A DNA stretch of 28,279 nucleotides from Chlamydiota bacterium (GTDB lineage: Bacteria; Acidobacteriota; Terriglobia; Terriglobales; Acidobacteriaceae): the NCBI GenBank assembly GCA_050257615.1, contig JBLMXE010000103.1:1-28279 (forward strand). The letters run 5' to 3'. A program made the position numbers and the translations under genes. Each line of letters begins with the position of its first letter. Within the stretch, counting starts at the first letter, position 1. The notes beneath the pieces were generated by a model. The model made no database searches. It saw nothing but the letters and a program-made list of their open reading frames with translations, and was not told the DNA's origin. Below, piece by piece: positions 4,377 to 27,005 of the stretch.

Positions 4377-7300
4377 TCAGTTCCCGTGCCCCGCAGGCTT
4401 TTCTTCGGCAGTAAGCCTGCCCGCTTCCGCCGCCGCGCTTTGCAGCTTCTGGCCGGCCACGTTGGCCTGCTGATCGAGCGCCTGGAACACGGCATATTGC
4501 GCCGGAGTTGGCCTGGCATAGGCGAGGTCAACATCCGCGGCCAGGTATGCCAGGTGGTCTCGCAATTTGGTTTCGTAGAGCAGGCTGCCTTCTGACGACT
4601 TCATGGCCATCTGGGCGACGTCGCCGATCTCGCGGTTGAGAGCTGCCAGCACACTGGCGGCCTGTGCGGTGGGCAAATAGTGAGCGGCAACGGCTTTCTG
4701 CAGATTATCGCGCGCCGCCAGCGCCCGATTGATGGCCTGGTCCAGTCTATCGAGATCGGTGTGAATCTGCTGATCCAGGGCCAGCCGCGCCGCTAGTTCC
4801 TGTGGCGTCGCGTGGAGTCTGGGATCGAGGCTGACAGAGAAACTCGCTTTCGTCGTCTGTCCGCCATACGTGAGCGCAACGGTGTAGTTGCCCGGCACGA
4901 CTTCAGGGCCCTCCACGGAGTCTTTTAGGCCGCCTGCAGGAATGGGCGCGTGGTATCCGGTCACCTCCGCCGCATAGGGATAGCGCAAGTCCCACTGGAA
5001 GCGATTCATCCCCGGCTCCACGGCCGTGAGCCTTTGTTCCTTTTCCCGAATCTGCTGATCCGTCGGCTCGGCGCTGTGGTCCACTTCGGCGGCCACATTC
5101 TCCTGGCCTTTTACGGTTTGCTCCTGGCCCGCCTGAGCCTCCTTTTCTTTTGCCTTCTCCTTCTTCTCTTTTTCTGTTTCCAGGTGCAGAACGAAGCTGC
5201 GAATTACTTTGCCTTGCGAATTTGCTATTTCCAGGCTGGCCGGCGTTTTGCCGTCATAGTTCTGGGGAAGGTGGAAGAAGATGGTAGCGCCGAACGGCGG
5301 GTTATCGCCCGCGTCGGGCACGCGCCGGGCTTCGGGGCTGGGCTTGCCATAGGCATGCGTGAGCCATGCCTGCTGGGGAGCAAACAAGAAAGCCGAATTG
5401 GCTGCCGCCAGCGGTTTCTTGGTCAGCTGCTCAAGAACCGTTAGGTTGTCCAGAATCCAAAACGCCCGTCCGTGAGTGGCGGCCACTACCTCCCCCTGGC
5501 GTGAATTAATGGCCAGATCGCGCACTTCGGTGACGGGCAGATTAAGAGTCAGAGGCTGCCAATGCGCCCCGGCATCCAGGCTGACATACACGGTGCTACG
5601 CGTGCCCAGGAAAAGCAGCGCGGGATCACTGGGATCCTGGCGAAGATCGAAAACAAATTCATCCGCCGGCAGTCCGGCTGTGATTGCGGTCCAGTGCCGG
5701 CCCAAGTCGGTGGTCTCGTAAACATAGGGACGGAAGTCGTCCCACATGTAGCGCCGAGCCGTGAGATAGGCGGTATTCTTGTCGGCGTGCGAAGGCTCAA
5801 TACAACTGATCCACGAGTCGGGCAGTCCCGGTGGAGTTACCAACTGCCAGCTTTTTCCTCCATCCGTGGTCACGTGGGCCAGGCCGTCATCCGAGCCGGC
5901 CCAGATCACGTTGCCGTCGAGCGGCGAAACCGCCAGCGCCGAGATGCCGGGATAAATCTCGGCTCCCGACTGGTCCAGGTCAACCGGCCCGCCGCTTGGT
6001 ATTTCCGTGCTTGCCCGGTTGCGCGTGAGGTCGGGCGAAATTCGCTTCCAGCTCTGGCCGTAATCGTCGCTCTTGAATACGTATTGAGCGGCGGTCAGCA
6101 GTTCCTTCGGATTAGCCGGCGAAAACAGAATGGGATGTGTCCAGCCAAACCGGTTCTTGAGTTCGTTTGATGCCGACCCTTCCTCATAGTTCGGCCATGG
6201 ACTCACGCTGTGATACTCTTCGCTGTCGCGGTCGTACCTCACAAAAATGCTGTAATACCCGCTGCCATAAGTGATCTTGGGATTGTCCGGTTGCGGCACG
6301 GAATAGGTGCTCTCGCCGTAGGCCACGCGGTGCCAGGCCGAAAGCGGAATTGTGCCTCCGCTGCTGGCGCTCGGCCCTTCGAATGACCCTTCGTCCTGCT
6401 GCGCGCCGAAAACGTGAAAAGGAAACTGATTGTCGAGATTGACGTGGTAGAACTGGCCGGTAGGCTGATTGTGCTCTGTGCTCCAGGTGTTGCCGCCGTC
6501 GGTTGAGACGGTGGCGCCGCCGTCGTTGCCTTCCAGCAGAATCCGCGTGTCATTCGGATTGATCCACACCACGTGATTGTCTCCATGGGGCGGCCGCAGC
6601 TTCTTGAATGTCTTGGCCCCGTCGTGCGAAACCCACAGCGCATCCACTTCCGGCGCGTACACGGTGTTGGGGTCCTTGGGGTCGGCGTAAATGGTCATGT
6701 AATAGAAGGCGCGCTGCCGCAGCTTCCACTCGCTGTTCACGCGCTTCCAGGTGGCGCCTGCGTCCTCCGAGCGGAACACGCCGCCTCCTTTTGCCTGCAT
6801 AATCGCGTACACAATATTCGAGTTGCTGGCAGCAACGGAAAGGCCGACACGCCCTAGAACGGTCTGCGGCAAGCCCTGGTTGTGGGAAAGATTCGTCCAA
6901 TGCTCGCCCCCGTCCGTGGTCTTATAGATACCGCTGCCCGGGCCCCCGCTGATAAGGCCCCACGGCATGCGCACGGCTTGCCACATCGCGGCATAGAGCA
7001 CGGCCGGGTTGTTCGGGTCCATCACCAGGCAGATGGCGCCGGTTTTGTCATCCACATACAGGATCTTTTTCCAGGATTTGCCGCCATCGCTGGACTTGAA
7101 AACGCCCCGTTCGGGATTGGAAGCGAACACGTGTCCCATGGAGGCGGCATAGACAACATTGGCATCCTTGGGATCCACGACGATCGCGCTGGTGGAGTGG
7201 GTTTCGCGCAGGCCGGCATAATGCCAGCTCTTACCCGCGTCCGTGGATTTGTAGATGCCGTCGCCGGGAATCACGTCGCTGCGTATGTCAGTTTCGCCCG

Positions 7301-7658
7301 TGCCCGCGTAAAGGATTTTGGGATTCGAGGGCGTCACTGCAATAGCTCCAATACTGGAGCTGGGCTCGGGCAGCTTGCCGTCAGATATGTTTCGCCAGGT
7401 AATGCCCTCATCCGTGCTCTTCCAGACTCCGCCGCCCACCGCTCCCGCATAAAACAGATTGGCGTCTCCCGCAACCCCGGTCACGGTAACCACTCGCCCT
7501 CCGATGTAGGGGCCAATGGATCGCCATTTGAGTTTGCTCATCAGTTCTGGTACGGAAACGGAGCCTGAGCTTTGCGGACCGGCGAGCCCCGCAAGTGGCA
7601 CAGCAACGATCAGAGCGGGCAGGAAGCAAAATGCCACGAGTCGGATAAGCTGTTTCAT
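4377..7658 (-). CDS. Asp-box/BNR-repeat beta-propeller protein (VPS10/sortilin-like, GH74-like putative glycosyl hydrolase)
   Basis: Signal peptide, LKWRSIGPYIGGRV start of the mature domain, and about 11 S/TxDxGxxW Asp-boxes (STDEGITW, STDAGKSW, SSDGGKSW, TTDGGEHW, SEDAGATW, STDGGNTW, SDDYGQSW, TTDGGKSW, TTDLGRHW, SLDAGAHW and others). Helical C-terminus. Confidence 0.85.
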   Translation of the reverse strand: MKQLIRLVAFCFLPALIVAVPLAGLAGPQSSGSVSVPELMSKLKWRSIGPYIGGRVVTVTGVAGDANLFYAGAVGGGVWKSTDEGITWRNISDGKLPEPSSSIGAIAVTPSNPKILYAGTGETDIRSDVIPGDGIYKSTDAGKSWHYAGLRETHSTSAIVVDPKDANVVYAASMGHVFASNPERGVFKSSDGGKSWKKILYVDDKTGAICLVMDPNNPAVLYAAMWQAVRMPWGLISGGPGSGIYKTTDGGEHWTNLSHNQGLPQTVLGRVGLSVAASNSNIVYAIMQAKGGGVFRSEDAGATWKRVNSEWKLRQRAFYYMTIYADPKDPNTVYAPEVDALWVSHDGAKTFKKLRPPHGDNHVVWINPNDTRILLEGNDGGATVSTDGGNTWSTEHNQPTGQFYHVNLDNQFPFHVFGAQQDEGSFEGPSASSGGTIPLSAWHRVAYGESTYSVPQPDNPKITYGSGYYSIFVRYDRDSEEYHSVSPWPNYEEGSASNELKNRFGWTHPILFSPANPKELLTAAQYVFKSDDYGQSWKRISPDLTRNRASTEIPSGGPVDLDQSGAEIYPGISALAVSPLDGNVIWAGSDDGLAHVTTDGGKSWQLVTPPGLPDSWISCIEPSHADKNTAYLTARRYMWDDFRPYVYETTDLGRHWTAITAGLPADEFVFDLRQDPSDPALLFLGTRSTVYVSLDAGAHWQPLTLNLPVTEVRDLAINSRQGEVVAATHGRAFWILDNLTVLEQLTKKPLAAANSAFLFAPQQAWLTHAYGKPSPEARRVPDAGDNPPFGATIFFHLPQNYDGKTPASLEIANSQGKVIRSFVLHLETEKEKKEKAKEKEAQAGQEQTVKGQENVAAEVDHSAEPTDQQIREKEQRLTAVEPGMNRFQWDLRYPYAAEVTGYHAPIPAGGLKDSVEGPEVVPGNYTVALTYGGQTTKASFSVSLDPRLHATPQELAARLALDQQIHTDLDRLDQAINRALAARDNLQKAVAAHYLPTAQAASVLAALNREIGDVAQMAMKSSEGSLLYETKLRDHLAYLAADVDLAYARPTPAQYAVFQALDQQANVAGQKLQSAAAEAGRLTAEEKPAGHGN

Positions 7659-7810
7659 GGTTGATTTCCTAGACTGGAATTTCCCAGCATCTTTTGGCCT
7701 TGGGAATATACAACATACAAGGGAAGGGAACCAGTGCAGCTACACGGGTGTACTCGGTGGACGCAGCCTTAGGCAGTCCTTTTCCGTGTGGAATATCGCT
7801 TAGCCGAGCA

Positions 7811-10558
7811 TTAGGGACTCACCACCCGGCCTAGCTCTCTTTTCACAGTGGCTCGCAGCGCCTCGACATTGAAGGGTTTCTCCAGCAGAACGGCGCCGGA
7901 GCCCACATCCGCTTCCGCTTTCACCAGAACGTCACTGTAGCCCGACATGTAAATAACCTTGATCTCTGGCCGCAGGACTCGCAGATGGGCCGCCAGTTCA
8001 ACGCCGCTGATGCCCGCCGATAAAACCACGTCGGTCAACAAAAGATCAATCGGCCCCGCGTGGGAGCGCGCGACATTCACCGCTTCTTCTCCGTTGCTGG
8101 CCAGCAGCACCGTGTACCCACTGTCTCGCAGCGCGGCCTGGGTCATCTCAGCCAGCGGCTTTTCGTCCTCCACCACCAGAATCGTTCCCGATGCTGGTTC
8201 GGACACCGGTGCGGCGCGCGCCGGCAGCGCCGCCTTTTCCGCTGGCGCGAACACGCGCGGCAAATAGATCTTGAACGCAGTGCCTTGGCCAGGTTCGCTA
8301 TACACCCAGATATGCCCTCCGCTCTGCCGCACGATGCCATAAATGATGGACAATCCCAGCCCCGTGCCCTTGCCTATCGCCTTGGTGGTAAAGAAGGGCT
8401 CAAAAATACGAGACCGGGTGCTTTCGTCCATACCTACGCCGGTGTCCGATACGGAGATCATCACGTAGGGGCCGGGAAGCACTTCCGGGTGCAACCGCTG
8501 GTAGTTGCTGTCTAGATCCACGTTGGCTGATGCAATTCTCAGCCTGCCTCCCCCGGGCATGGCGTCTCTGGCATTGACCGCTAGGTTGATCAACACTTGC
8601 TCAAACTGCACCGGATCAGCTTTTACCCGGCCCAAGTCGGGGGCCAAATGAAGGACTACTTCAATGTTCTCTCCGATCAGCCGGGGCAACATCTTGCTTA
8701 GCTCAGTAATTCGCTCATTCAGGTCCAGCAGCCGTACGTCCATCACTTGTTTGCGGCTGAAGGCCAGCAATTGCCGGGTAAGTGCCGCCGCGCGCTCGGC
8801 TGCTTTGAGAATGCTATCCAGGTGCTTCACGCTGGGGTCGTCGGCCTTCAGTTTCCCCTGGATGAGCGCGGAATAGCCCAGAATGATGCCGATGATGTTG
8901 TTGAAGTCGTGCGCCACCCCGCCCGCGAGGCGGCCTATTGCCTCCAGTTTCTGCGCCTGCAGCAGCTGTTCTTCGAGAATCTTGCGTTCACTGATGTCGC
9001 GGGCCGCGGCGAAGACGCCTTCCACTTCTCCGACTTCGTTGCGGAACACGGAAGCGTTGTACAGAACGTGCGTGACCTGCCCGGAGGGGTGGCGGATGGC
9101 CAGTGGATAATCGTGCACCGATTCCTTCTCGAAGACCTTTTGGTAGCCCTCGCGCGCTTTGTCCGGCTCGGTGAAATACTCGCAGAAATCGCTGCCGATC
9201 AGGCGGCCACGCGGCACTCCTGTGACCAGTTCCGTGGCCCGGTTGACGTCGGTTATCTTGCCCTCACGGTTGATCGTGACCAGTGGATCGAGGCTGGCCT
9301 CGATCAGGCTGCGCGCATACAAGGACGCCCGGCGCAATTGCTCTTCCGCCTCCTTGCGCTCCGTGATGTCCTGGATCATGGAAAGCACGCCCATAACCGT
9401 CCCGTCCGACTCTTTCAAGGGAGTGTTGGTCCAATGGCAGGTAATCACGCGGCCATCTTTGGTGAGGTTCTCGTTGGTGCTGTGGGCAGTCGCATCCCCC
9501 TGCAGCAACCGCGAAAAGATAGCATCCACACGCCCTTTATTATCCGCGGGAACGATGAGATCGTAGGGATGCTGTCCCATGGCTTCTTCCGCGCTAAAGC
9601 CAAAAATCTGCTCCGCGGCGGGATTCCACGACATGACGCGAAACTCCCGGCTCCACACGATGCAGCCAATGGGCATGCGATCAATCTGCAGTTGCAGCCG
9701 GGCTTTGCTTTGCCGGACTTCCTCTTCGGCTTGCTTGCGCTCCGTAATGTCGGTTACGGCACACGTGATCCCGGCCACGTTTCCCGCACGGTCGCGCAGG
9801 GGCTCGCCGGCGAAATCGTAGTAAATGGTCCGGCCCTGGAAGTGTATGGGAATTTCTTCCCGCACACCTTGCCCGGTTTCCAGAATGCGGCGCTTGACGG
9901 CGGCCAGGCGAGCCGCATCCTCCGCATTCTCCAGGATCTCGGCATCCGTTTTCCACAGCCAGCCCCGCTCCCTCCAGGAGGCCACCGGGCTATTTATCCA
10001 TGTGTACCTCAGGTCCCGGTCCTGGTTGAAAACGACGATGGGAGAATTCTGCAGAGCCACCCGGAAACGTTCCTCGCTGGCCCGGACTGCCTCCTCGGTC
10101 CGCCTTTTTTCTGTGATGTCGGTGAAGGTTGTAACCACCGAATCCACGGTAACGCCACTGCCATTAAAAATAGGTTGCGAGTTAACCAGGATCCAACTCA
10201 CGCTCCCGTCCGCTTTCTGCACGCCCATGCAGACATCATGCTGCGGTTGGCCTGTGTGCAGCGTCACCATCGCCGGATGCTCCGTCCCCGGAAATGGCGA
10301 CCCGTCTTCGTGGATAGTGCGCCAATGCGGGTCCAAGGAAGTTCGGCCTTGCATCTGTGCGGCCGTGAGCCCCAGGATTTGTTCTGCGCGGGGATTGCAC
10401 GTTACGATGACCCCGCCGGCATTCTGCACCACCACTCCTTCCGCCATGGCGGTTACCACCGAGCGATAGCGTTCCTCGCTTACGCGCAGGGCCTTCTCCG
10501 CCAGCATCTTTTCCTTCTTGCGGAGTTGGCTTTCTCGGCGGCGCTGCTGGCCGAACAT
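7811..10558 (-). CDS. hybrid sensor histidine kinase/response regulator with four PAS domains
   Basis: Four PAS repeats (SEERYRSVV.., SEERFRVAL.., SKARLQLQI.., [16 protein letters not shown]..). H-box GVAHDFNN, N-box [31 protein letters not shown], and a C-terminal receiver ([12 protein letters not shown]). Start ATG 10558 chosen for the upstream AGGAAG. Confidence 0.93.
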
Positions 10559-20188: not shown

Positions 20189-20392
20189 ATGCGCACCAAC
20201 ATTGACATTGATGACCGCTTGATGCGGCAAGCCATGAGGTGCAGCCAGGCGCCGACAAAGCGGGCGGCGGTGGAAGCCGGGCTGCGACTGCTGATTCAGA
20301 CTCGCGCTCAGGCCGGTATTCGCCGCTGGCGTGGCAAAATCCGATGGCAGGGTGATTTGAACATCTCGCGCACAAGCCGCGTTTCGGAGTAG
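20189..20392 (+). CDS. vapB: type II toxin-antitoxin antitoxin, VapB family
   Basis: MRTNIDIDDRLMRQAM...TKRAAVEAGLRLL...RGKIRWQGDL..SR signature, directly upstream of a PIN gene. Confidence 0.9.
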   Translation: MRTNIDIDDRLMRQAMRCSQAPTKRAAVEAGLRLLIQTRAQAGIRRWRGKIRWQGDLNISRTSRVSE

Positions 20393-20400
20393 CACACTGC

Positions 20401-20838
20401 GTGGTGATCGTGGACACAACCGTTTGGGTTGACTATCTGCGGGGTGTGGAGAATTCTGAAACTGACTGGCTGAACCTTGAACTCGGCCGCCAGCGTCTGG
20501 GATTGACAGACTTGATCCTCTGTGAAGTCCTCCAGGGCATTCGCGACCCGGCTGCCTTTTCCCGCGTACTGCGCGAACTGCGCAAATTTGAGGTGTTTGA
20601 GACGGGCGGGGTGGAGCTGGCTGTCGCCGCCGCTGAGAATTTCCGCAAGCTCCGCGAACGGGGCCGCACAGTTCGCAAGACCATCGACTGCTTAATTGCC
20701 ACCTTCTGCCTTCGCGGCCGGCATTCTCTGCTGCACCGGGATCGCGACTTCGATCCATTCGAACAGATGCTCGGTCTTCCTGTGATTCACCCGCATCGGC
20801 CCGGGCAGGGAGCAGAGCCCTCCTTAGTCAAGCAATAA
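20401..20838 (+). CDS. vapC: PIN-domain ribonuclease toxin, VapC family
   Basis: IVDTTVWVDY, CEVLQG, RKTIDCLIA and LLHRDRDFD supply the four PIN acidic positions. GTG start. Confidence 0.92.
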   Translation: MVIVDTTVWVDYLRGVENSETDWLNLELGRQRLGLTDLILCEVLQGIRDPAAFSRVLRELRKFEVFETGGVELAVAAAENFRKLRERGRTVRKTIDCLIATFCLRGRHSLLHRDRDFDPFEQMLGLPVIHPHRPGQGAEPSLVKQ

Positions 20839-21367: not shown

Positions 21368-22030
21368 CTACGAACAGCCGCCGCCCAGGCGCAGCTTCTT
21401 CTCCGGCTTTTTTCCCTGCGGCGGTTGCTGGCTGGCGGGCAGAGGCGGAGGCGCAACCTGCGGCGCTGCGGTTCCCGCGGTCGCCGGCGCCACTCCGCTG
21501 AAGTAGGCGCGCAGCTGCCTGGCCTGCTGGTAGCCGGCCGGCGACTCGGTTGCAGAGCGCAGGCTGGTGGGCGTCATCACGTTCTCCCACCAGGCCGAGA
21601 TCCCTTCCCGCAGCGAGTAAGCCTTGTAACCTTTGAGGCTGAGCAGAAGCTGTGTCTGGGCGGCATGGCCGGCCCCCAGCCCGTATACCACCACCTTCTT
21701 TTCCCGCGAGAGCTTCTTGAGGTCGTCTGCCTGGAACAGCTGCGGCAGAGGCATGTTCACAGCCGTAGGAATATGATAGTCGTCGAATTGCCAGGGCTGG
21801 CGGATATCAATCAGCTGGTAATCCTGGCGTTTCTCCATGATCCAGCGCGCCAGTTCCAGTGGAGTCACGTGATCTTTCTCTTCCGCCATGTTCTGCGCCA
21901 CGGCCGCAGCATCCATGGGGAGCGCAGCGGTGCCGTGGGCAATGGTGGTCAGCAGCGCGATCAGGAGCCCAAGAAAAACGGCCGCAATGGCGGCCAGACG
22001 CTTTCCCGTCAGAACAAACTCTCGTCTCAT
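21368..22030 (-). CDS. membrane-anchored rhodanese-fold protein with a C-terminal GGGCS tail
   Basis: N-terminal hydrophobic helix and rhodanese motifs (LIDIRQPWQFDDYHIPTAVN; KKVVVY; SLREGISAW). Pro/Ala-rich linker, ends KKLRLGGGCS. ATGA overlap with the upstream gene and AGGAG RBS. Confidence 0.88.
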   Translation of the reverse strand: MRREFVLTGKRLAAIAAVFLGLLIALLTTIAHGTAALPMDAAAVAQNMAEEKDHVTPLELARWIMEKRQDYQLIDIRQPWQFDDYHIPTAVNMPLPQLFQADDLKKLSREKKVVVYGLGAGHAAQTQLLLSLKGYKAYSLREGISAWWENVMTPTSLRSATESPAGYQQARQLRAYFSGVAPATAGTAAPQVAPPPLPASQQPPQGKKPEKKLRLGGGCS

Positions 22031-22647
22031 GGCATCTCCTTCCTGACGAGTTTGCCATAAGTCCGGCCATATGAATCCCAGGAAGTTTCGCAGCGCTCGC
22101 CTGCCCAGAAGGCTCCCAGGGCTATGACTACGATGGCCAGCACCACCAGTCCCACGTTTAAGTCGAGCCAGAGGGGCAGCGTCAAAGCGCCCATGGAACC
22201 GGAGACATTAAACCGGCTGAAATTCGGCAGCTCCGCCCCAAACACAAAGATTCCCAGAAAGATCCCGACAATAAAGAAGAGCGCGTCCAGCTTGCCGATG
22301 GCGGCCGCCACCATCGAAGTGCCGGGACAATATCCGCCCACGATGAACCCGCTGCCCAGCAGCAGCCCGCCCACAATCTGCGGCCACAGAAAGGTCGGCG
22401 GCACATAGACCTGGCTCATGTCCAGCCAGCCCGCCACACCCAAATACGCAAGGCCCAGCATGGCTACCACGATGGCGGTGAACATCACCTTCAATACGGC
22501 GAAGTCTTTCAGATAGAACTGAGCCGTCAATTTACGCGCGCTGGAGAAGCCGGCCCGCTCCAGGAAAAAGCCGAAGAAGAATCCCAGCCCCACCGACACC
22601 ACCAGGTAGGTTGCCGTCGAAAAGGAAGCAGCGTAGGGAGCATTCAT
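22027..22647 (-). CDS. YeeE/YedE-family (TsuA-like) sulfur-compound transporter half
   Basis: LGFFFGFFLERAGF, LKVMFTAI, GGLLLGSGFIVGGYCPGTS signature. ATG 22647 has a GGAGG RBS and overlaps the upstream TGA (ATGA). Confidence 0.9.
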   Translation of the reverse strand: MNAPYAASFSTATYLVVSVGLGFFFGFFLERAGFSSARKLTAQFYLKDFAVLKVMFTAIVVAMLGLAYLGVAGWLDMSQVYVPPTFLWPQIVGGLLLGSGFIVGGYCPGTSMVAAAIGKLDALFFIVGIFLGIFVFGAELPNFSRFNVSGSMGALTLPLWLDLNVGLVVLAIVVIALGAFWAGERCETSWDSYGRTYGKLVRKEMP

Positions 22648-24035
22648 AGCCAAAACCTCCGCAGGAAGTAAGCGCCCGCAAAGCCGGCGGCAAACACACT
22701 GAGCATGAAAGCGAAGGCGCCCACGGAGAGCACCGCGCCTCCGGAGAGCGCCAGCCCGCTGGTGCAGCCGCGGGCCAGGCGCGCGCCCAGTCCGGTCAGG
22801 ATGCCCCCGCCCAGCGCCAGCGCATAACGGGTGGTGGCGCTGATGCGCGGTCCCTTGTCCACCGCCAAACGCGTGCGGTGCGCCAGCCAGCCGGAAACGA
22901 AGCCGCCCAGGGCCGCGCCGATTAACTCGAATACCAGAAAGTCAATCAGGGGCGACTGGCCGGGCTGAAGGTAATTGCTCCAGTAGGCGTTCGAGTTCGC
23001 ATAGCCTGGCGCGATCCAGGAGAGGAAGGCAACCAGGTAGCGGGTGAACCCGCCCGAGGCGCCCAGGCCCTGTCCCATAATCACAAAGGTGAGCAGCAGC
23101 GTGACGCCCAGCCCAAATCCGGCGGCATAGGGCGGCCAGTATCCCGGCTGGCGAAACACGCGCGTCAGCAAGCCCGGAGCTGCCGGCGCTGCTCCCCTCG
23201 TTTCCTCAGGAACTGCAGTTTCCGGCATCGCGGCCCTGGCCACGACCGTGCCGTTGGCCTGCGCCAGTTCCTCTTCAATCCCTTGTTCCCACTCCGCTTC
23301 GCGCATCTTCATCTCCCTCCACCATTTGAAGTGATGGCGGTAGGCGTACAGTTCATTGACCGTTCCGGTAATCATGGAGAAGAAGGCCGGTTTCTCCTCA
23401 GGGAAAACCGCGCCCATGTACACGTGAATCATCAAGCCCGAGACCACCATGCCCACCGCCACGAAGTGGAGCACTACGGCAAAACCGACTACCGTGGTGC
23501 TGATCAGGTGGAAGCTCATGACCAGACCCGTGGCCATAATCAGCGGAATCATGGCATAGACCATAAGGGCGAACATCTTCTGGCCGGCGTTGTAGACGCC
23601 CTGAGGTGGCAGATGTTCTTGTGTACGCCGCAGCAGCCGCAGGGTGCGGATTTTGAGCCACCGAAAATCGTCGCGGTCCAGGCCAATTTCCCGTTGCAGA
23701 ACTTGTTTCGCCAGGTAGGTGCGGAAGCCAAAGGTCCCGTACACCAGGAAAACCGCGATCCATACCAGGCCGACGGTGATGTGGAAGCGCAGCATGTCGG
23801 CGCGCGTGCCGAAGAAGCCCTGGATCAGGTTGATATACCAGTAAGGCACAATGCGGAAGTGCGGCGAGGAGATGAGGGCTGTCCCCGTCGCCAGCTCCGC
23901 CAGCCACACGGTGGCATTGAACCAGTGCAGCAGCATGATGGCCACATGGTGCTTCTTGATTTGCCGCTGCGCCATGGCTTCCGCTTGCTGCCCGCTGAGG
24001 GCAACCGGCTTCATCGGCAAATTGCTGGTGACCAT
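22644..24035 (-). CDS. fusion of an FdnI/PhsC-type di-haem cytochrome b and a YeeE/YedE transporter half
   Basis: N-terminal part: LLHWFNA, FHITVG, PPQGVYNAGQK, VLHF-x-MIHVYM with His residues 14 apart, SMITGTV..AYRHH..W. Then a charged and Pro/Ala linker. From residue ~299: YWPPYAAGFGLG, GLGASG, GGFVSG, GARLARGCTSGLALSGG. Single uninterrupted frame with a GAGGAGG RBS. Confidence 0.9.
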   Translation of the reverse strand: MVTSNLPMKPVALSGQQAEAMAQRQIKKHHVAIMLLHWFNATVWLAELATGTALISSPHFRIVPYWYINLIQGFFGTRADMLRFHITVGLVWIAVFLVYGTFGFRTYLAKQVLQREIGLDRDDFRWLKIRTLRLLRRTQEHLPPQGVYNAGQKMFALMVYAMIPLIMATGLVMSFHLISTTVVGFAVVLHFVAVGMVVSGLMIHVYMGAVFPEEKPAFFSMITGTVNELYAYRHHFKWWREMKMREAEWEQGIEEELAQANGTVVARAAMPETAVPEETRGAAPAAPGLLTRVFRQPGYWPPYAAGFGLGVTLLLTFVIMGQGLGASGGFTRYLVAFLSWIAPGYANSNAYWSNYLQPGQSPLIDFLVFELIGAALGGFVSGWLAHRTRLAVDKGPRISATTRYALALGGGILTGLGARLARGCTSGLALSGGAVLSVGAFAFMLSVFAAGFAGAYFLRRFWL

Positions 24036-24044
24036 GGCTCCTCC

Positions 24045-24779
24045 TCAGTCCTCAAAATCCTTTTCCCCGGTTTTCAGCTGACGGAAAAATGCGATCGCCT
24101 GGCCCAGGAAGGTGGCTCCCACCGCAGCCAGCACCAGTGGCTTCAAAAACCGGTCCCACATAGCGCCAGCTGCCAGCAGCGTGGGTTTGTGCGGCGGAAA
24201 CGTGGCCAGCACCAGGTCCACATGTTCCTGCTTGCCCAGGTAGTACACATTCGGGCCGATGGCGACGTCCGAGGTTTCCAGGCGGCGCGCGCCCTCCTCA
24301 TACACCATCCGGAACACATCGCTGCTGGAGTCTTCCAGGTTGCCGAAAAACTTGGCATGCGCGGTACAAGTTGTGACGCAGATGGGAAGCTGTCCGCGTT
24401 CCAGGCGCGCCGAACAGAAATCACACTTATCCACCTTGTTGATGGCTGGGTTGAGATAGCGGGCGCCGTATGGACAGGCGTCCACGCAGTAGCCGCAGCC
24501 AATGCACAGGGTGTGGTCCACCTTCACAATTCCGCTCGCTTCATCCTGGTAAGTGGCCCCGGTCGGGCAGGGCGCGATGCACGCTGGCCGGTCGCAGTGG
24601 TTGCACTGCGCCACGTAGAAAGTGGAGAGCAAACGGGGAAAAGTTCCGGCAATGCCGGTGAAGCGGATGTGGGTGCGCGCGTAGCCTGCCGGTACCTCCC
24701 ACTCCGAGTTGCAGGCCACGGTGCAGGCCTGGCAGCCCACGCACTTCCTCAAATCCACGACCATGGCGTAACGTGGCAT
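24045..24779 (-). CDS. psrB: 4x[4Fe-4S] electron-transfer subunit (PsrB/PhsB/NrfC family) with a C-terminal membrane helix
   Basis: CVGCQACTVAC, CNHCDRPACIAPCP, CIGCGYCVDACP, KCDFC..CVTTC. Hydrophobic tail PLVLAAVGATFLGQAIAFF. Confidence 0.9.
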   Translation of the reverse strand: MPRYAMVVDLRKCVGCQACTVACNSEWEVPAGYARTHIRFTGIAGTFPRLLSTFYVAQCNHCDRPACIAPCPTGATYQDEASGIVKVDHTLCIGCGYCVDACPYGARYLNPAINKVDKCDFCSARLERGQLPICVTTCTAHAKFFGNLEDSSSDVFRMVYEEGARRLETSDVAIGPNVYYLGKQEHVDLVLATFPPHKPTLLAAGAMWDRFLKPLVLAAVGATFLGQAIAFFRQLKTGEKDFED

Positions 24780-24797
24780 TGTCCAACCTCAACCCGG

Positions 24798-27005
24798 CTA
24801 AGTGCTCTCCTTCAGCACGCGCACAAAGTTCACCCGCATGCCGGTGCCGCCCATCAGGGGATCAATGTTCACCCGCGTCATCAGTTCGGTATCAGAAGCG
24901 CCGCGGTGGTAGGCACGGCGCAGCTTGCGCGATTCGTGGCCGAAGCCGTGAACCATATAGACGCAGTCGCGCCGAATCCCGGGCGTGACCCGCACTTCCA
25001 CCGGCAAGCTGGTGGCGCCGTCCTGATTCTGCAATGTCACACGGTCGTCGTCTTCCAGGCGCAGGTCGCGGGCCGCGTCGGCGTTGATCCACACCGCGTT
25101 CTCCGCCATCAGCGCGTCCAGCACCTTATTGTTCTGGCTGCGCGCAAAAGAGTGCACTGGCGCCCGCCCATAGATCAGCCGGAAATATCCCAGGGGAGGA
25201 TCGGTCACCGGGGTGTAGCGCGGCATGGGATCGGCCCCCAGTTGCTTCAAAGTGGAGGAATAGAGCTCGATCTTGCCGCTGGGCGTGGCAAACAGCGGCC
25301 CATCGGCGGGCGTGCGGTCTTCTATGTAGGGATGGCCGGGAAAAGCTAAGGCCCCGCGCACCGCCAGCGTCCTCATATTCACGTCCAGGGGGCCTACCAG
25401 GGTTTGCAGATGCTCTTCCGGAGTCTTCCAGGGGAACCAGGCCTGCAACCCAAGTCGTTGCGCCATCTGCTGCGCGATCCACCAGCCCGGCTTGGATTCG
25501 TAAAGCGGGTCCACCACCGGCTGCCGTACCGACACAAACGGCTGCTTGGCGCTCTCCGCCATCATGGGCGCGTCATAGCGCTCCAGGTAGGTGGCTTCGG
25601 GCAGCACCAGGTCGGCGTAGTTGGCCTGTTCCATGGGCATCACGTCCACCACCGCCATGAATTCAAGCTTCTCGATCGCTTGCAGCGTTCGCTGCCGCTG
25701 CGGAATACTCTCCAGAACGTTCTGTCCGTAAACCACCCAGGCTTTGATGGGATAAGGTTTGCCGGTGAGCGTGGCCTCCACCAGGCCGTTGGTGACTCCC
25801 TGTTCTTCGGAGGCGAGAGGATAGGTGGTGCCGGCGCCATCAGCCCGGCCTAGTTGTGATTCTGGAAACGGCGGCAGGGCGAACTTACCCTTCTTCAGCG
25901 GCGTAGGAAGGAAGATGCCGCCCTTGCGCCCCCAGCTTCCGGTCAGCGCGGTCAGAATGGCCATGGCGCGCTCGCGTTGCGTGTCGTCGCCATACCAGGT
26001 GGCATGCCGCCCCGGGTGCAGCGCCACTGCCGGCTTGGCCTGCGCCATGGCGCGCGCCGTTTCCCGAATCTGCGGCGCGGGAATTTCCGTAATCGGCTCC
26101 GCCCACTCGGGGGTGAATTCGCGCACGTAGGAGGCAAGCTCGCTGAATCCAGTTGCGTATTTCGTGATGTATTCGCGGTCGTAACCTCCTTCCGCGATCA
26201 AAACGTTCATCCACGCCAGCAGCAGCGCGATGTCGGTTCCCGGGCGGACGGGCAGCCACCAGTCCGCCTTGGCGGCCGCCGTGGAAAACCGCGGATCAAC
26301 CACGATCAGTTTCGCGCCCCGCGCCAGACCTTCGGCAAACGCGGTCACCTGGGAAGTGAAAATGTTTTCCCCGATGTGCGAGCCGATCAGCACCATCAGC
26401 TTGGCTTCTTCCAGGTCCACCGGCTCGGGCGAACCCAGGCCATGCCCGAAGGTCAGCGCATAGCCGACCTCACGCGGCCCCCGGCATTGTGCGAACGCAG
26501 GCTCGGCGGCGTTGGGCGTGCCGTAGGCCTTCATCAGGGTGGCGAAAAATCCCGAAGCGACGCCGTGAGGGAAGAAAGCCACGCTCTCCGGGCCATATTT
26601 CTTTTTCAGATCAGAAAGGCGCTGGGCGAAGAAGTCGAGCGCCTGCTCCCAGGTGATCCGCCGGAAACTGCCTTCGCCGCGCGCACCCGCGCGCAGTTGC
26701 GGATATTTCAGGCGGTCGGGATCATAGAGCAGGGAGGCGCCGGCATTGCCGCGGGCGCACAGCCGTCCCCGGGTCAGCGGATGGTCGGGGTTGCCTTCCA
26801 GCTTGACCACCTTCCCGTCCGCCACTTCCGCGATCACGCCGCAGCGCCAGAAGCACATTTCGCAGTTGGTGGCGATCTGCTCGGTACGGCGCGTGCCGCT
26901 CCAGCCCGGTGGGTGGTTCTGGGCAGTGGCCGCTTCCGCCACCAGTCCGGCCCCGGCGAGCGAAGAAAGCTTGAAAAAATCCCTGCGGCTCAGCTTGTCG
27001 TTCAT
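24798..27005 (-). CDS. psrA: polysulfide/thiosulfate reductase-type molybdopterin (bis-MGD) catalytic subunit, Tat-exported
   Basis: SRRDFFK Tat motif, CEMCFWRC..LCARG FS0 cluster, PESVAFFPHG, and PNAAEPAFAQCRGPR (Cys Mo-ligand position as in PsrA). Also VDPRFSTAAAKADWWLPVRPGTD, DLVLPEATYLER, ATPSGKIELYS. Substrate (polysulfide, thiosulfate or other) cannot be fixed by eye. Confidence 0.88.
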   Translation of the reverse strand: MNDKLSRRDFFKLSSLAGAGLVAEAATAQNHPPGWSGTRRTEQIATNCEMCFWRCGVIAEVADGKVVKLEGNPDHPLTRGRLCARGNAGASLLYDPDRLKYPQLRAGARGEGSFRRITWEQALDFFAQRLSDLKKKYGPESVAFFPHGVASGFFATLMKAYGTPNAAEPAFAQCRGPREVGYALTFGHGLGSPEPVDLEEAKLMVLIGSHIGENIFTSQVTAFAEGLARGAKLIVVDPRFSTAAAKADWWLPVRPGTDIALLLAWMNVLIAEGGYDREYITKYATGFSELASYVREFTPEWAEPITEIPAPQIRETARAMAQAKPAVALHPGRHATWYGDDTQRERAMAILTALTGSWGRKGGIFLPTPLKKGKFALPPFPESQLGRADGAGTTYPLASEEQGVTNGLVEATLTGKPYPIKAWVVYGQNVLESIPQRQRTLQAIEKLEFMAVVDVMPMEQANYADLVLPEATYLERYDAPMMAESAKQPFVSVRQPVVDPLYESKPGWWIAQQMAQRLGLQAWFPWKTPEEHLQTLVGPLDVNMRTLAVRGALAFPGHPYIEDRTPADGPLFATPSGKIELYSSTLKQLGADPMPRYTPVTDPPLGYFRLIYGRAPVHSFARSQNNKVLDALMAENAVWINADAARDLRLEDDDRVTLQNQDGATSLPVEVRVTPGIRRDCVYMVHGFGHESRKLRRAYHRGASDTELMTRVNIDPLMGGTGMRVNFVRVLKEST

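Follow-up and report, generated by a model that had tools for sequence, protein, structure and literature searches.

The window, as we call the whole 28,279-nt stretch of DNA analysed here, carries five tightly packed genes on the minus strand at positions 21368–27005. On the basis of domain matches, four of them encode a PsrA/PhsA-type molybdopterin catalytic subunit with the twin-arginine signal RRDFFK (24798–27005), a PsrB-type four-cluster ferredoxin subunit (24045–24779), a cytochrome b of the FdnI/PhsC type (PF01292) fused to a first YeeE half (22644–24035) and a second, PmpA/B-like YeeE/YedE half of 208 aa (PF04143; 22027–22653). The fifth gene, rhd-GC (21368–22030), identified from its ORF, a Pfam Rhodanese match and its homologues, encodes a 220-aa membrane-anchored protein that combines a Cys-less rhodanese domain with a C-terminal Cys arm, and its ATG overlaps the stop codon of the upstream YeeE-half gene as ATGA (22027–22030). 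The PsrA subunit matches Thermus PsrA (2vpw) over its full length with an E-value of 4e-223, and its best NCBIfam match, PhsA, falls under the cut-off of that model. The acidobacterial PsrB has 244 aa, including an extra hydrophobic C-terminal stretch that may be an FdnH-like anchor; PsrB proteins of NrfD-type clusters have about 185 aa and align only to its residues 1–181. The genes flanking the operon are unrelated to it. Just downstream lie two small plus-strand ORFs (20189–20392 and 20401–20838) that, judged by eye from their translations, look like a VapB/VapC (PIN-domain) toxin–antitoxin pair.

The rhd-GC product begins with a basic stretch, MRREFVLTGKR, followed by a single transmembrane anchor at residues 12–30 (21941–21997; hydropathy 2.66), which appears as a helix spanning residues 9–31 in the AF2 model. 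Its sole Pfam match is the Rhodanese domain (PF00581, E 7e-16), which covers residues 59–149 (21584–21856); the fold is supported by pLDDT values of 80–90 in the AF2 core and by a Foldseek search that returned single-domain rhodaneses with a probability of 1.00. Catalytic rhodaneses carry Cys as the first residue of a C-x-x-G-x-R/T loop. The corresponding loop here reads VVVY-G-LGAGHA, and the catalytic position is occupied by Gly117, encoded by GGG at 21680–21682. An extra helix (residues 164–178) separates the rhodanese domain from a disordered Pro/Ala/Gln-rich linker (residues 180–211, 21398–21493), which belongs to a Pro/Ala/Gln stretch of 40 residues that, together with KKPEKKLRLGGG, lies ahead of Cys219. 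The protein thus ends, after a linker with pLDDT below 50, in KKPEKKLRLGGGCS, of which KLRLGGGCS (21371–21397) is the conserved tail. Cys219 (TGT, 21374–21376) is the only Cys of the protein and its penultimate residue, followed by Ser and a TAG stop. Pfam detected neither a TusA fold (PF01206) nor a SoxY or SoxZ domain in the product, and no SoxZ-like gene was identified among the annotated ORFs of the window.

Both peculiarities, the lost loop Cys and the Cys at the very end, recur across the family. In a 72-sequence alignment, the column of residue 117 holds Ser in 51 members, Gly in 11, Ala in 6, Tyr in 2 and Cys in 2; it can be equated with the catalytic position because one of the Cys-bearing relatives has the canonical loop C-R-T-G-V-R. 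Most members share the loop Y-[SGA]-x-G-x-x-H-A-A-Q-A-W instead. At the other end of the protein, all 120 close homologues (57–99% identity) terminate in [LIT]-G-x-G-C-[ST]; in 118, this Cys is the only one. Within this motif, G216, G218 and C219 are invariant and L213, L215 and S220 are at least 90% conserved; the consensus tail is G-[KR]-G-C-[ST], of which the GGGCS of the window is a rare form. A profile search extended the family to 6415 relatives, from which 71 representatives of 175–285 aa were kept. Nearly all of these have no loop Cys, and their tails include ...KKKKEGC, ...KKSGGC, ...RRRGC and ...GLIVDEGC; it is likewise missing from relatives at about 35% identity, which terminate in ...KKKKEGC, ...LIVDEGC or ...RRRGC. 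The basic patch that precedes Cys219 is therefore not universal, since the lipoprotein-type relatives carry ...GLIVDEGC. Across 127 loci, a G-C, G-C-S/T or G-C-G end is kept in 124, the three exceptions being one contig end and two aberrant, frameshift-like C-termini. The linker, by comparison, is hypervariable, with a median of 40 residues, a range of 14–120 among the representatives and a Pro plus Ala content of 43%. Judged from these alignments, conservation of the terminal Cys is far beyond chance. We also considered whether the TGA that comes directly after ...EGC in many relatives might encode selenocysteine, as in the GCU end of thioredoxin reductase, and rejected this reading because the downstream sequence is unconserved and other members have TAA or TAG at this point.

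The rhodanese domain is predicted to be extracytoplasmic, with an N-in/C-out orientation of the anchor, because several relatives start with a lipoprotein lipobox and because the charges flanking the transmembrane helix (+3 on the N-terminal side, −3 on the C-terminal side) obey the positive-inside rule. These results bear on the original prediction, which had been made from the DNA sequence of the window. It had described a rhodanese fold whose catalytic Cys was replaced by Gly, and the Pfam match, the AF2 model with Foldseek and the alignment column agree with this. Direct reading of the codon at 21682–21680 confirmed that GGG is two changes away from a Cys codon (TGY), and the ORF translation bore out a single penultimate Cys behind a long Pro/Ala/Gln linker and a basic patch. 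The periplasmic location that had been proposed from the basic N-terminus ahead of the transmembrane helix is upheld by the flank charges and the lipobox relatives. Last, the expected conservation of the terminal GC together with loss of the loop Cys was found in homologues from 99% down to about 30% identity.

Each of the two YeeE halves keeps one Cys. In the cytochrome b fusion this is Cys424 within RGCTSG (codon 22764–22766), which is conserved in 95 of 95 aligned loci, and in the second half it is the conserved Cys109 within GGY-C-PGTS (codon 22327–22329). PDB sequence searches with both halves returned no matches, and the pore positions were therefore judged by conservation only. Among the 42 acidobacterial loci whose second YeeE half could be aligned, 10 (L003, L006, L011, L016, L019, L021, L022, L023, L032 and L043) have an in-frame TGA as the Cys109 codon, past which the alignment continues unbroken; no other systematic in-frame stop was found across the five operon proteins. 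A stretch of 20 nt that starts 13 nt after the TGA is identical in ten of the ten loci, wobble positions included, and its local fold is a hairpin of 7 bp with the loop GGUC, which we take to resemble the SECIS element of E. coli fdhF. The SECIS-like assignment is based on this local folding and on the 20 invariant nucleotides; RNAalifold, applied to the region after the TGA, gave a different consensus fold and no covariation. Among five genomes with a TGA locus, selB was full-length and over the family cut-off in three, split into two adjacent pieces in one and partial in one, a 2-Mb metagenome-assembled genome (MAG), and the genome of the window itself has a selB fragment over the cut-off. 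Thus, the TGA at position 109 probably encodes selenocysteine in this YeeE half, and the exchange of Cys and Sec at one position argues for a nucleophilic pore residue. Gene callers would split or truncate YeeE halves of the TGA type.

To place the arm gene in its genomic context, we compared 44 species-representative genomes, all Acidobacteriota MAGs (Terriglobales, Bryobacterales and Acidoferrales), with loci from other lineages. The acidobacterial order is psrA–psrB–cytb::yeeE–yeeE–rhd: the second YeeE half adjoins rhd in 41 of 43 loci, PsrA and PsrB are present in 40 of 40, and at least 38 of 40 encode the cytochrome b and the first YeeE half as one fused protein, as compared with 0 of 21 loci elsewhere. 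This fusion implies that the quinol-oxidizing subunit and the channel belong to one putative physical complex. In the non-acidobacterial lineages, PsrC is a protein of its own, of the NrfD type, and the YeeE half is not fused. In a group of about 35% identity from wetland and sediment metagenomes, with the tail KKKKEGC, the order is psrA–psrB–psrC(NrfD)–yeeE–yeeE–rhd, and the second YeeE half is adjacent in 52 of 52 loci, the first in 38 of 38 and PsrAB present in 21 of 21. The tie to PsrAB and YeeE thus holds though the quinol subunit differs (cytochrome b in one case, NrfD in the other).

Plasmids carry the gene set as well, with the YeeE halves directly upstream of rhd at two of two loci and PsrA plus PsrB at one of two; the lipoprotein-type subgroup (...LIVDEGC) had no match in the plasmid search. 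A plasmid of Chondrinema litorale (Bacteroidota) has the same cluster as the wetland and sediment group, and its arm protein ends in ...KKKKKVQGGCS. Directly after its rhd-GC gene lies a shorter, membrane-anchored rhodanese-like gene with no Cys codon (L128, 7552–7968). The Gemmatirosa kalamazoonensis megaplasmid (NZ_CP007129; L127, about 4854–9862) encodes a two-rhodanese ORF, two YeeE halves, an rhd protein with the tail ...RRRGC and a class-V, cysteine-desulfurase-like aminotransferase, and no PsrAB was found within 6.5 kb upstream. Conversely, the acidobacterial locus L041 (1062–3395) reads psrA–psrB–cytb–rhd, with an unfused cytochrome b of 286 aa, an rhd product of 253 aa with a longer linker and the tail ...LKLGKGCS, and no adjacent YeeE; this contig ends 107 nt after rhd. 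Because L041 has no YeeE and the Gemmatirosa locus no Psr, neither PsrAB nor YeeE is obligatory in cis. As far as gene neighbourhoods tell, the split YeeE is the most constant neighbour of the arm, usually with a Psr-type enzyme as third partner.

The closest link between arm and channel comes from natural fusions. A search for longer proteins with the second YeeE half as the query yielded 106 fusions among the 120 matches listed; the same search with the rhodanese protein as the query found none. The fused proteins consist of a YeeE half, an extra transmembrane helix, a Cys-less rhodanese domain, a linker and a terminal Cys tail, the last of the [KR]EGC type in 83 and of the SoxY-like GGCG/GCGG type in 24 of the matches listed. 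Tails that read ...KVSGGCGG or ...GGCG occur in P0291 and P0302 (Isosphaeraceae) and in 22 others among the matches listed. Hosts of the fusions are Acidobacteriota (Terracidiphilus), Verrucomicrobiota (Actomonas aquatica, Opitutaceae) and Planctomycetota (Isosphaeraceae). The transmembrane helix of the window protein is retained in the fusions as a connector, so that the two overlapping genes of the window can be regarded as the split form of one unit. An AF2 model of a natural fusion returned the half-channel, the connector helix and the rhodanese domain with pLDDT of 70–90. In this model, as in that of the rhd-GC product, the tail was disordered, and AF2 placed it nowhere. Several other proteins, with no G-C end, combine rhodanese domains in different ways: P0121–P0126, P0150 and P0230 are very large (up to 2327 aa) with 6–16 tandem rhodanese-like matches, and in two proteins (1114 and 1175 aa) a complete YeeE domain is linked with four rhodanese domains.

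The arm family occurs in soil and peat Acidobacteria, Bacteroidota, Gemmatimonadota, Verrucomicrobiota and Planctomycetota. The YeeE–arm module was present in 9 of 151 sampled Acidobacteriota genomes, that of the window included, and in 0 of 10 other genomes of the same family; its spread is patchy and cassette-like. A FadL/TodX-family outer-membrane channel recurs near the operon at about ten loci from both sequence groups. It is encoded inside the operon at L021 (6657–7922; PF03349, E 7e-21), just beside it at L008, L023, L042, L043 and L058 (just downstream of rhd at L008, L023 and L043) and at a greater distance at L093, L109, L111 and L116; no such gene was found in the window. The recurrence of these channels hints at a hydrophobic substrate, such as S8 or polysulfanes. 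TusA-family proteins (PF01206) were found neither in the window's own genome, which is 75% complete, nor in five other operon-carrying genomes (G006–G010), and the same search detected them in 10 of 14 reference genomes used as a control. No dsrA was found in the window's own genome at the same 75% completeness.

The arm protein shares single traits with several characterized sulfur carriers. DsrC, a cytoplasmic partner of DsrAB, has a flexible C-terminal arm ending in ...TGCV with a second Cys ten residues upstream, and this arm inserts into the active-site channel of its partner. The arm described here resembles it in its penultimate, flexibly tethered Cys and differs in that DsrC has a fold of its own, is cytoplasmic and uses two Cys residues. 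Sud of Wolinella succinogenes is a periplasmic rhodanese-fold polysulfide-sulfur transferase that assists polysulfide reductase and is thought to hold sulfur on its loop Cys. Like Sud, the arm is a periplasmic rhodanese-fold protein linked to psr, but its loop residue is Gly, Ser or Ala, its Cys sits on a C-terminal tether, and it is membrane-anchored and YeeE-linked. A passage of PMC12997753 that cites Sauve et al. (2007) describes SoxY, which acts within SoxYZ in periplasmic thiosulfate oxidation and has a swinging arm ending in GGCGG. SoxY and the present protein share a periplasmic location and a single Gly-flanked Cys that tips a flexible C-terminal peptide, and the likeness to GGCGG drawn in the original prediction is strengthened by fused relatives that end in ...KVSGGCGG or GGCG. 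It does not extend to the fold or the partners: the SoxY fold and SoxZ are absent, the arm is a membrane-anchored rhodanese, and its partners are YeeE and a Psr-type reductase in place of SoxAX, SoxB and SoxCD.

The genetic link of the arm to PsrA and YeeE, also part of the original prediction, is borne out by synteny and by the fusions to a YeeE half, but the proposal that the arm acts in place of YeeD/TusA did not hold. The relevant passages of PMC11582611 and PMC13047784 describe YeeD/TsuB as a TusA-like partner of YeeE/TsuA at the cytoplasmic face of the channel. YeeD/TsuB and the arm are both small single-Cys proteins located beside, and sometimes fused to, a YeeE-family channel; YeeD/TsuB has the TusA fold and works at the cytoplasmic face, whereas the arm has a rhodanese fold and is predicted to lie at the periplasmic face. 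Because it faces the periplasm, the arm would be an extra, outer-side partner of YeeE and no substitute for YeeD or TusA. A cluster of phsABC, pmpA/B and a sulfurtransferase gene has been noted in Ca. Electryonea clarkiae, Ca. Lernaella stagnicola and Caldithrix abyssi, together with one Lernaella transporter to which a sulfurtransferase domain is fused (Williams et al. 2022, PMC9324843). It has the same order of molybdenum reductase, FeS subunit, membrane subunit, two half-YeeE proteins and sulfurtransferase; the acidobacterial version differs in that cytochrome b fused to the first YeeE half replaces NrfD. In that study the functions of the cluster are called unclear, and there is no mention of the lost loop Cys or of the arm with its Cys at the end. 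A full-text literature search found no description of a Cys-tipped arm of this kind, and the Cys-tipped rhodanese arm appears to be undescribed. In the source annotation, its homologues are named 'rhodanese-related sulfurtransferase', a label that hides their inability to work as a rhodanese.

Taken together, the sequence evidence supports well the view that the family represents a candidate swinging-arm carrier of sulfur that uses a catalytically dead rhodanese fold as its scaffold and is closely tied to a YeeE channel. A carrier function is suggested because the G-C end hardly varies across groups of about 30–35% identity in which the linker is hypervariable, and because the family combines SoxY-like tails, fusions to YeeE and general absence of the loop Cys. 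With moderate confidence, we propose that the rhd-GC product is the periplasmic carrier subunit of a complex between a Psr/Phs-type molybdoenzyme and a two-piece YeeE channel. The Cys-less rhodanese domain would serve as a docking or anion-cradle module, which might also cradle the loaded tail, and the chemistry would have moved to the single Cys at the end of a Pro/Ala tether of about 40 residues. The thiol of Cys219 would hold sulfane sulfur covalently, as a persulfide or polysulfide or possibly a thiosulfonate. The arm would then swing between the substrate funnel of PsrA and the YeeE pore, at whose periplasmic mouth sulfur would be handed to Cys/Sec109 and Cys424 and moved across the membrane. 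A positive charge is expected at the funnel of PsrA as well as at the mouth of YeeE, and the polybasic tail therefore has no obvious fit in either. PmpA and PmpB each correspond to one half of YeeE (PMC11582611), and a split YedE1E2 imports zero-valent sulfur and needs conserved Cys residues to do so (PMC10812762). Import is the favoured direction because the characterized YeeE/YedE1E2 proteins import.

The carrier proposal has to be weighed against a Sud-like helper that would serve the reductase only, its Cys binding and solubilizing polysulfide or S8 for PsrA; the YeeE halves would then only transport a free product or substrate and make no contact with the arm. Rhodanese-domain helpers do accompany Psr-clade enzymes, as in the Srr operon and the psr operon of Desulfurivibrio, and at L041 rhd directly follows psrAB–cytb with no YeeE. 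We nevertheless regard this reading as unlikely, because more than 100 clusters contain a fusion of the entire arm protein to a YeeE half, because in Gemmatirosa the module includes YeeE but no Psr was found within 6.5 kb, and because the start codon of rhd shares an ATGA with the stop codon of yeeE. Another reading is a gate or redox lid, in which the tail Cys and the pore Cys/Sec would form a reversible disulfide or selenenylsulfide that opens or closes the channel in response to the periplasmic redox or sulfur state and carries no sulfur. One tethered Cys beside a pore with an essential Cys/Sec, and a tail that is conserved whichever redox enzyme is nearby, would suit such a device; a tether of 40–120 residues is not needed for it, and the SoxY-type GGCGG tails of the fused forms point to a carrier, so that we consider a gate quite improbable.

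A different cargo, selenium, is suggested by the annotation of YedE/FdhT relatives as selenium transporters and by the Psr-like nature of Srr, the only known respiratory selenite reductase, which has rhodanese-domain partners. A Psr-like enzyme would reduce selenite or another selenium species, the arm would capture an S–Se adduct and the YedE-like channel would import it; selB is present in carrier genomes, and in some the channel is itself a probable selenoprotein. This reading seems to us very improbable, given that the PsrA subunit matches the Thermus polysulfide reductase over its full length (E 4e-223), that a five-gene operon of the respiratory type seems excessive for a trace element and that most loci have Cys and not Sec at position 109. 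Hardly credible, finally, is the idea that the terminal Cys has no chemistry of this sort at all and forms a structural disulfide for dimerization or marks a processing or sorting signal. Each protein has a single Cys and no partner Cys, neither a C-terminal transmembrane segment nor a known sorting motif was found in the rhd-GC product with Pfam and NCBIfam, and the motif is kept as a free C-terminus in transmembrane-anchored, lipoprotein and fused forms alike.

A more far-reaching form of the carrier proposal, possible in our view though doubtful, is a membrane-crossing sulfur relay coupled to quinol oxidation, in which an arm-bound persulfide is trimmed or generated by PsrA and handed off through the pore residues of the split YeeE. 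The sulfur would derive from S8 or polysulfide, PsrA would act on a protein-bound substrate, and transfer into the cytoplasm would proceed from thiol to thiol or from thiol to selenol. If such a relay operates, transport by the YeeE family would be a chain of trans-persulfidation steps and not the passage of a free ion. The arm bears on two questions, how poorly soluble sulfur is delivered to periplasmic polysulfide and thiosulfate reductases and whether sulfur passes through YeeE/YedE proteins as a free ion or is transferred covalently, and its family provides a widespread candidate for an outer-side partner of Psr-type reductases and YeeE/YedE channels.
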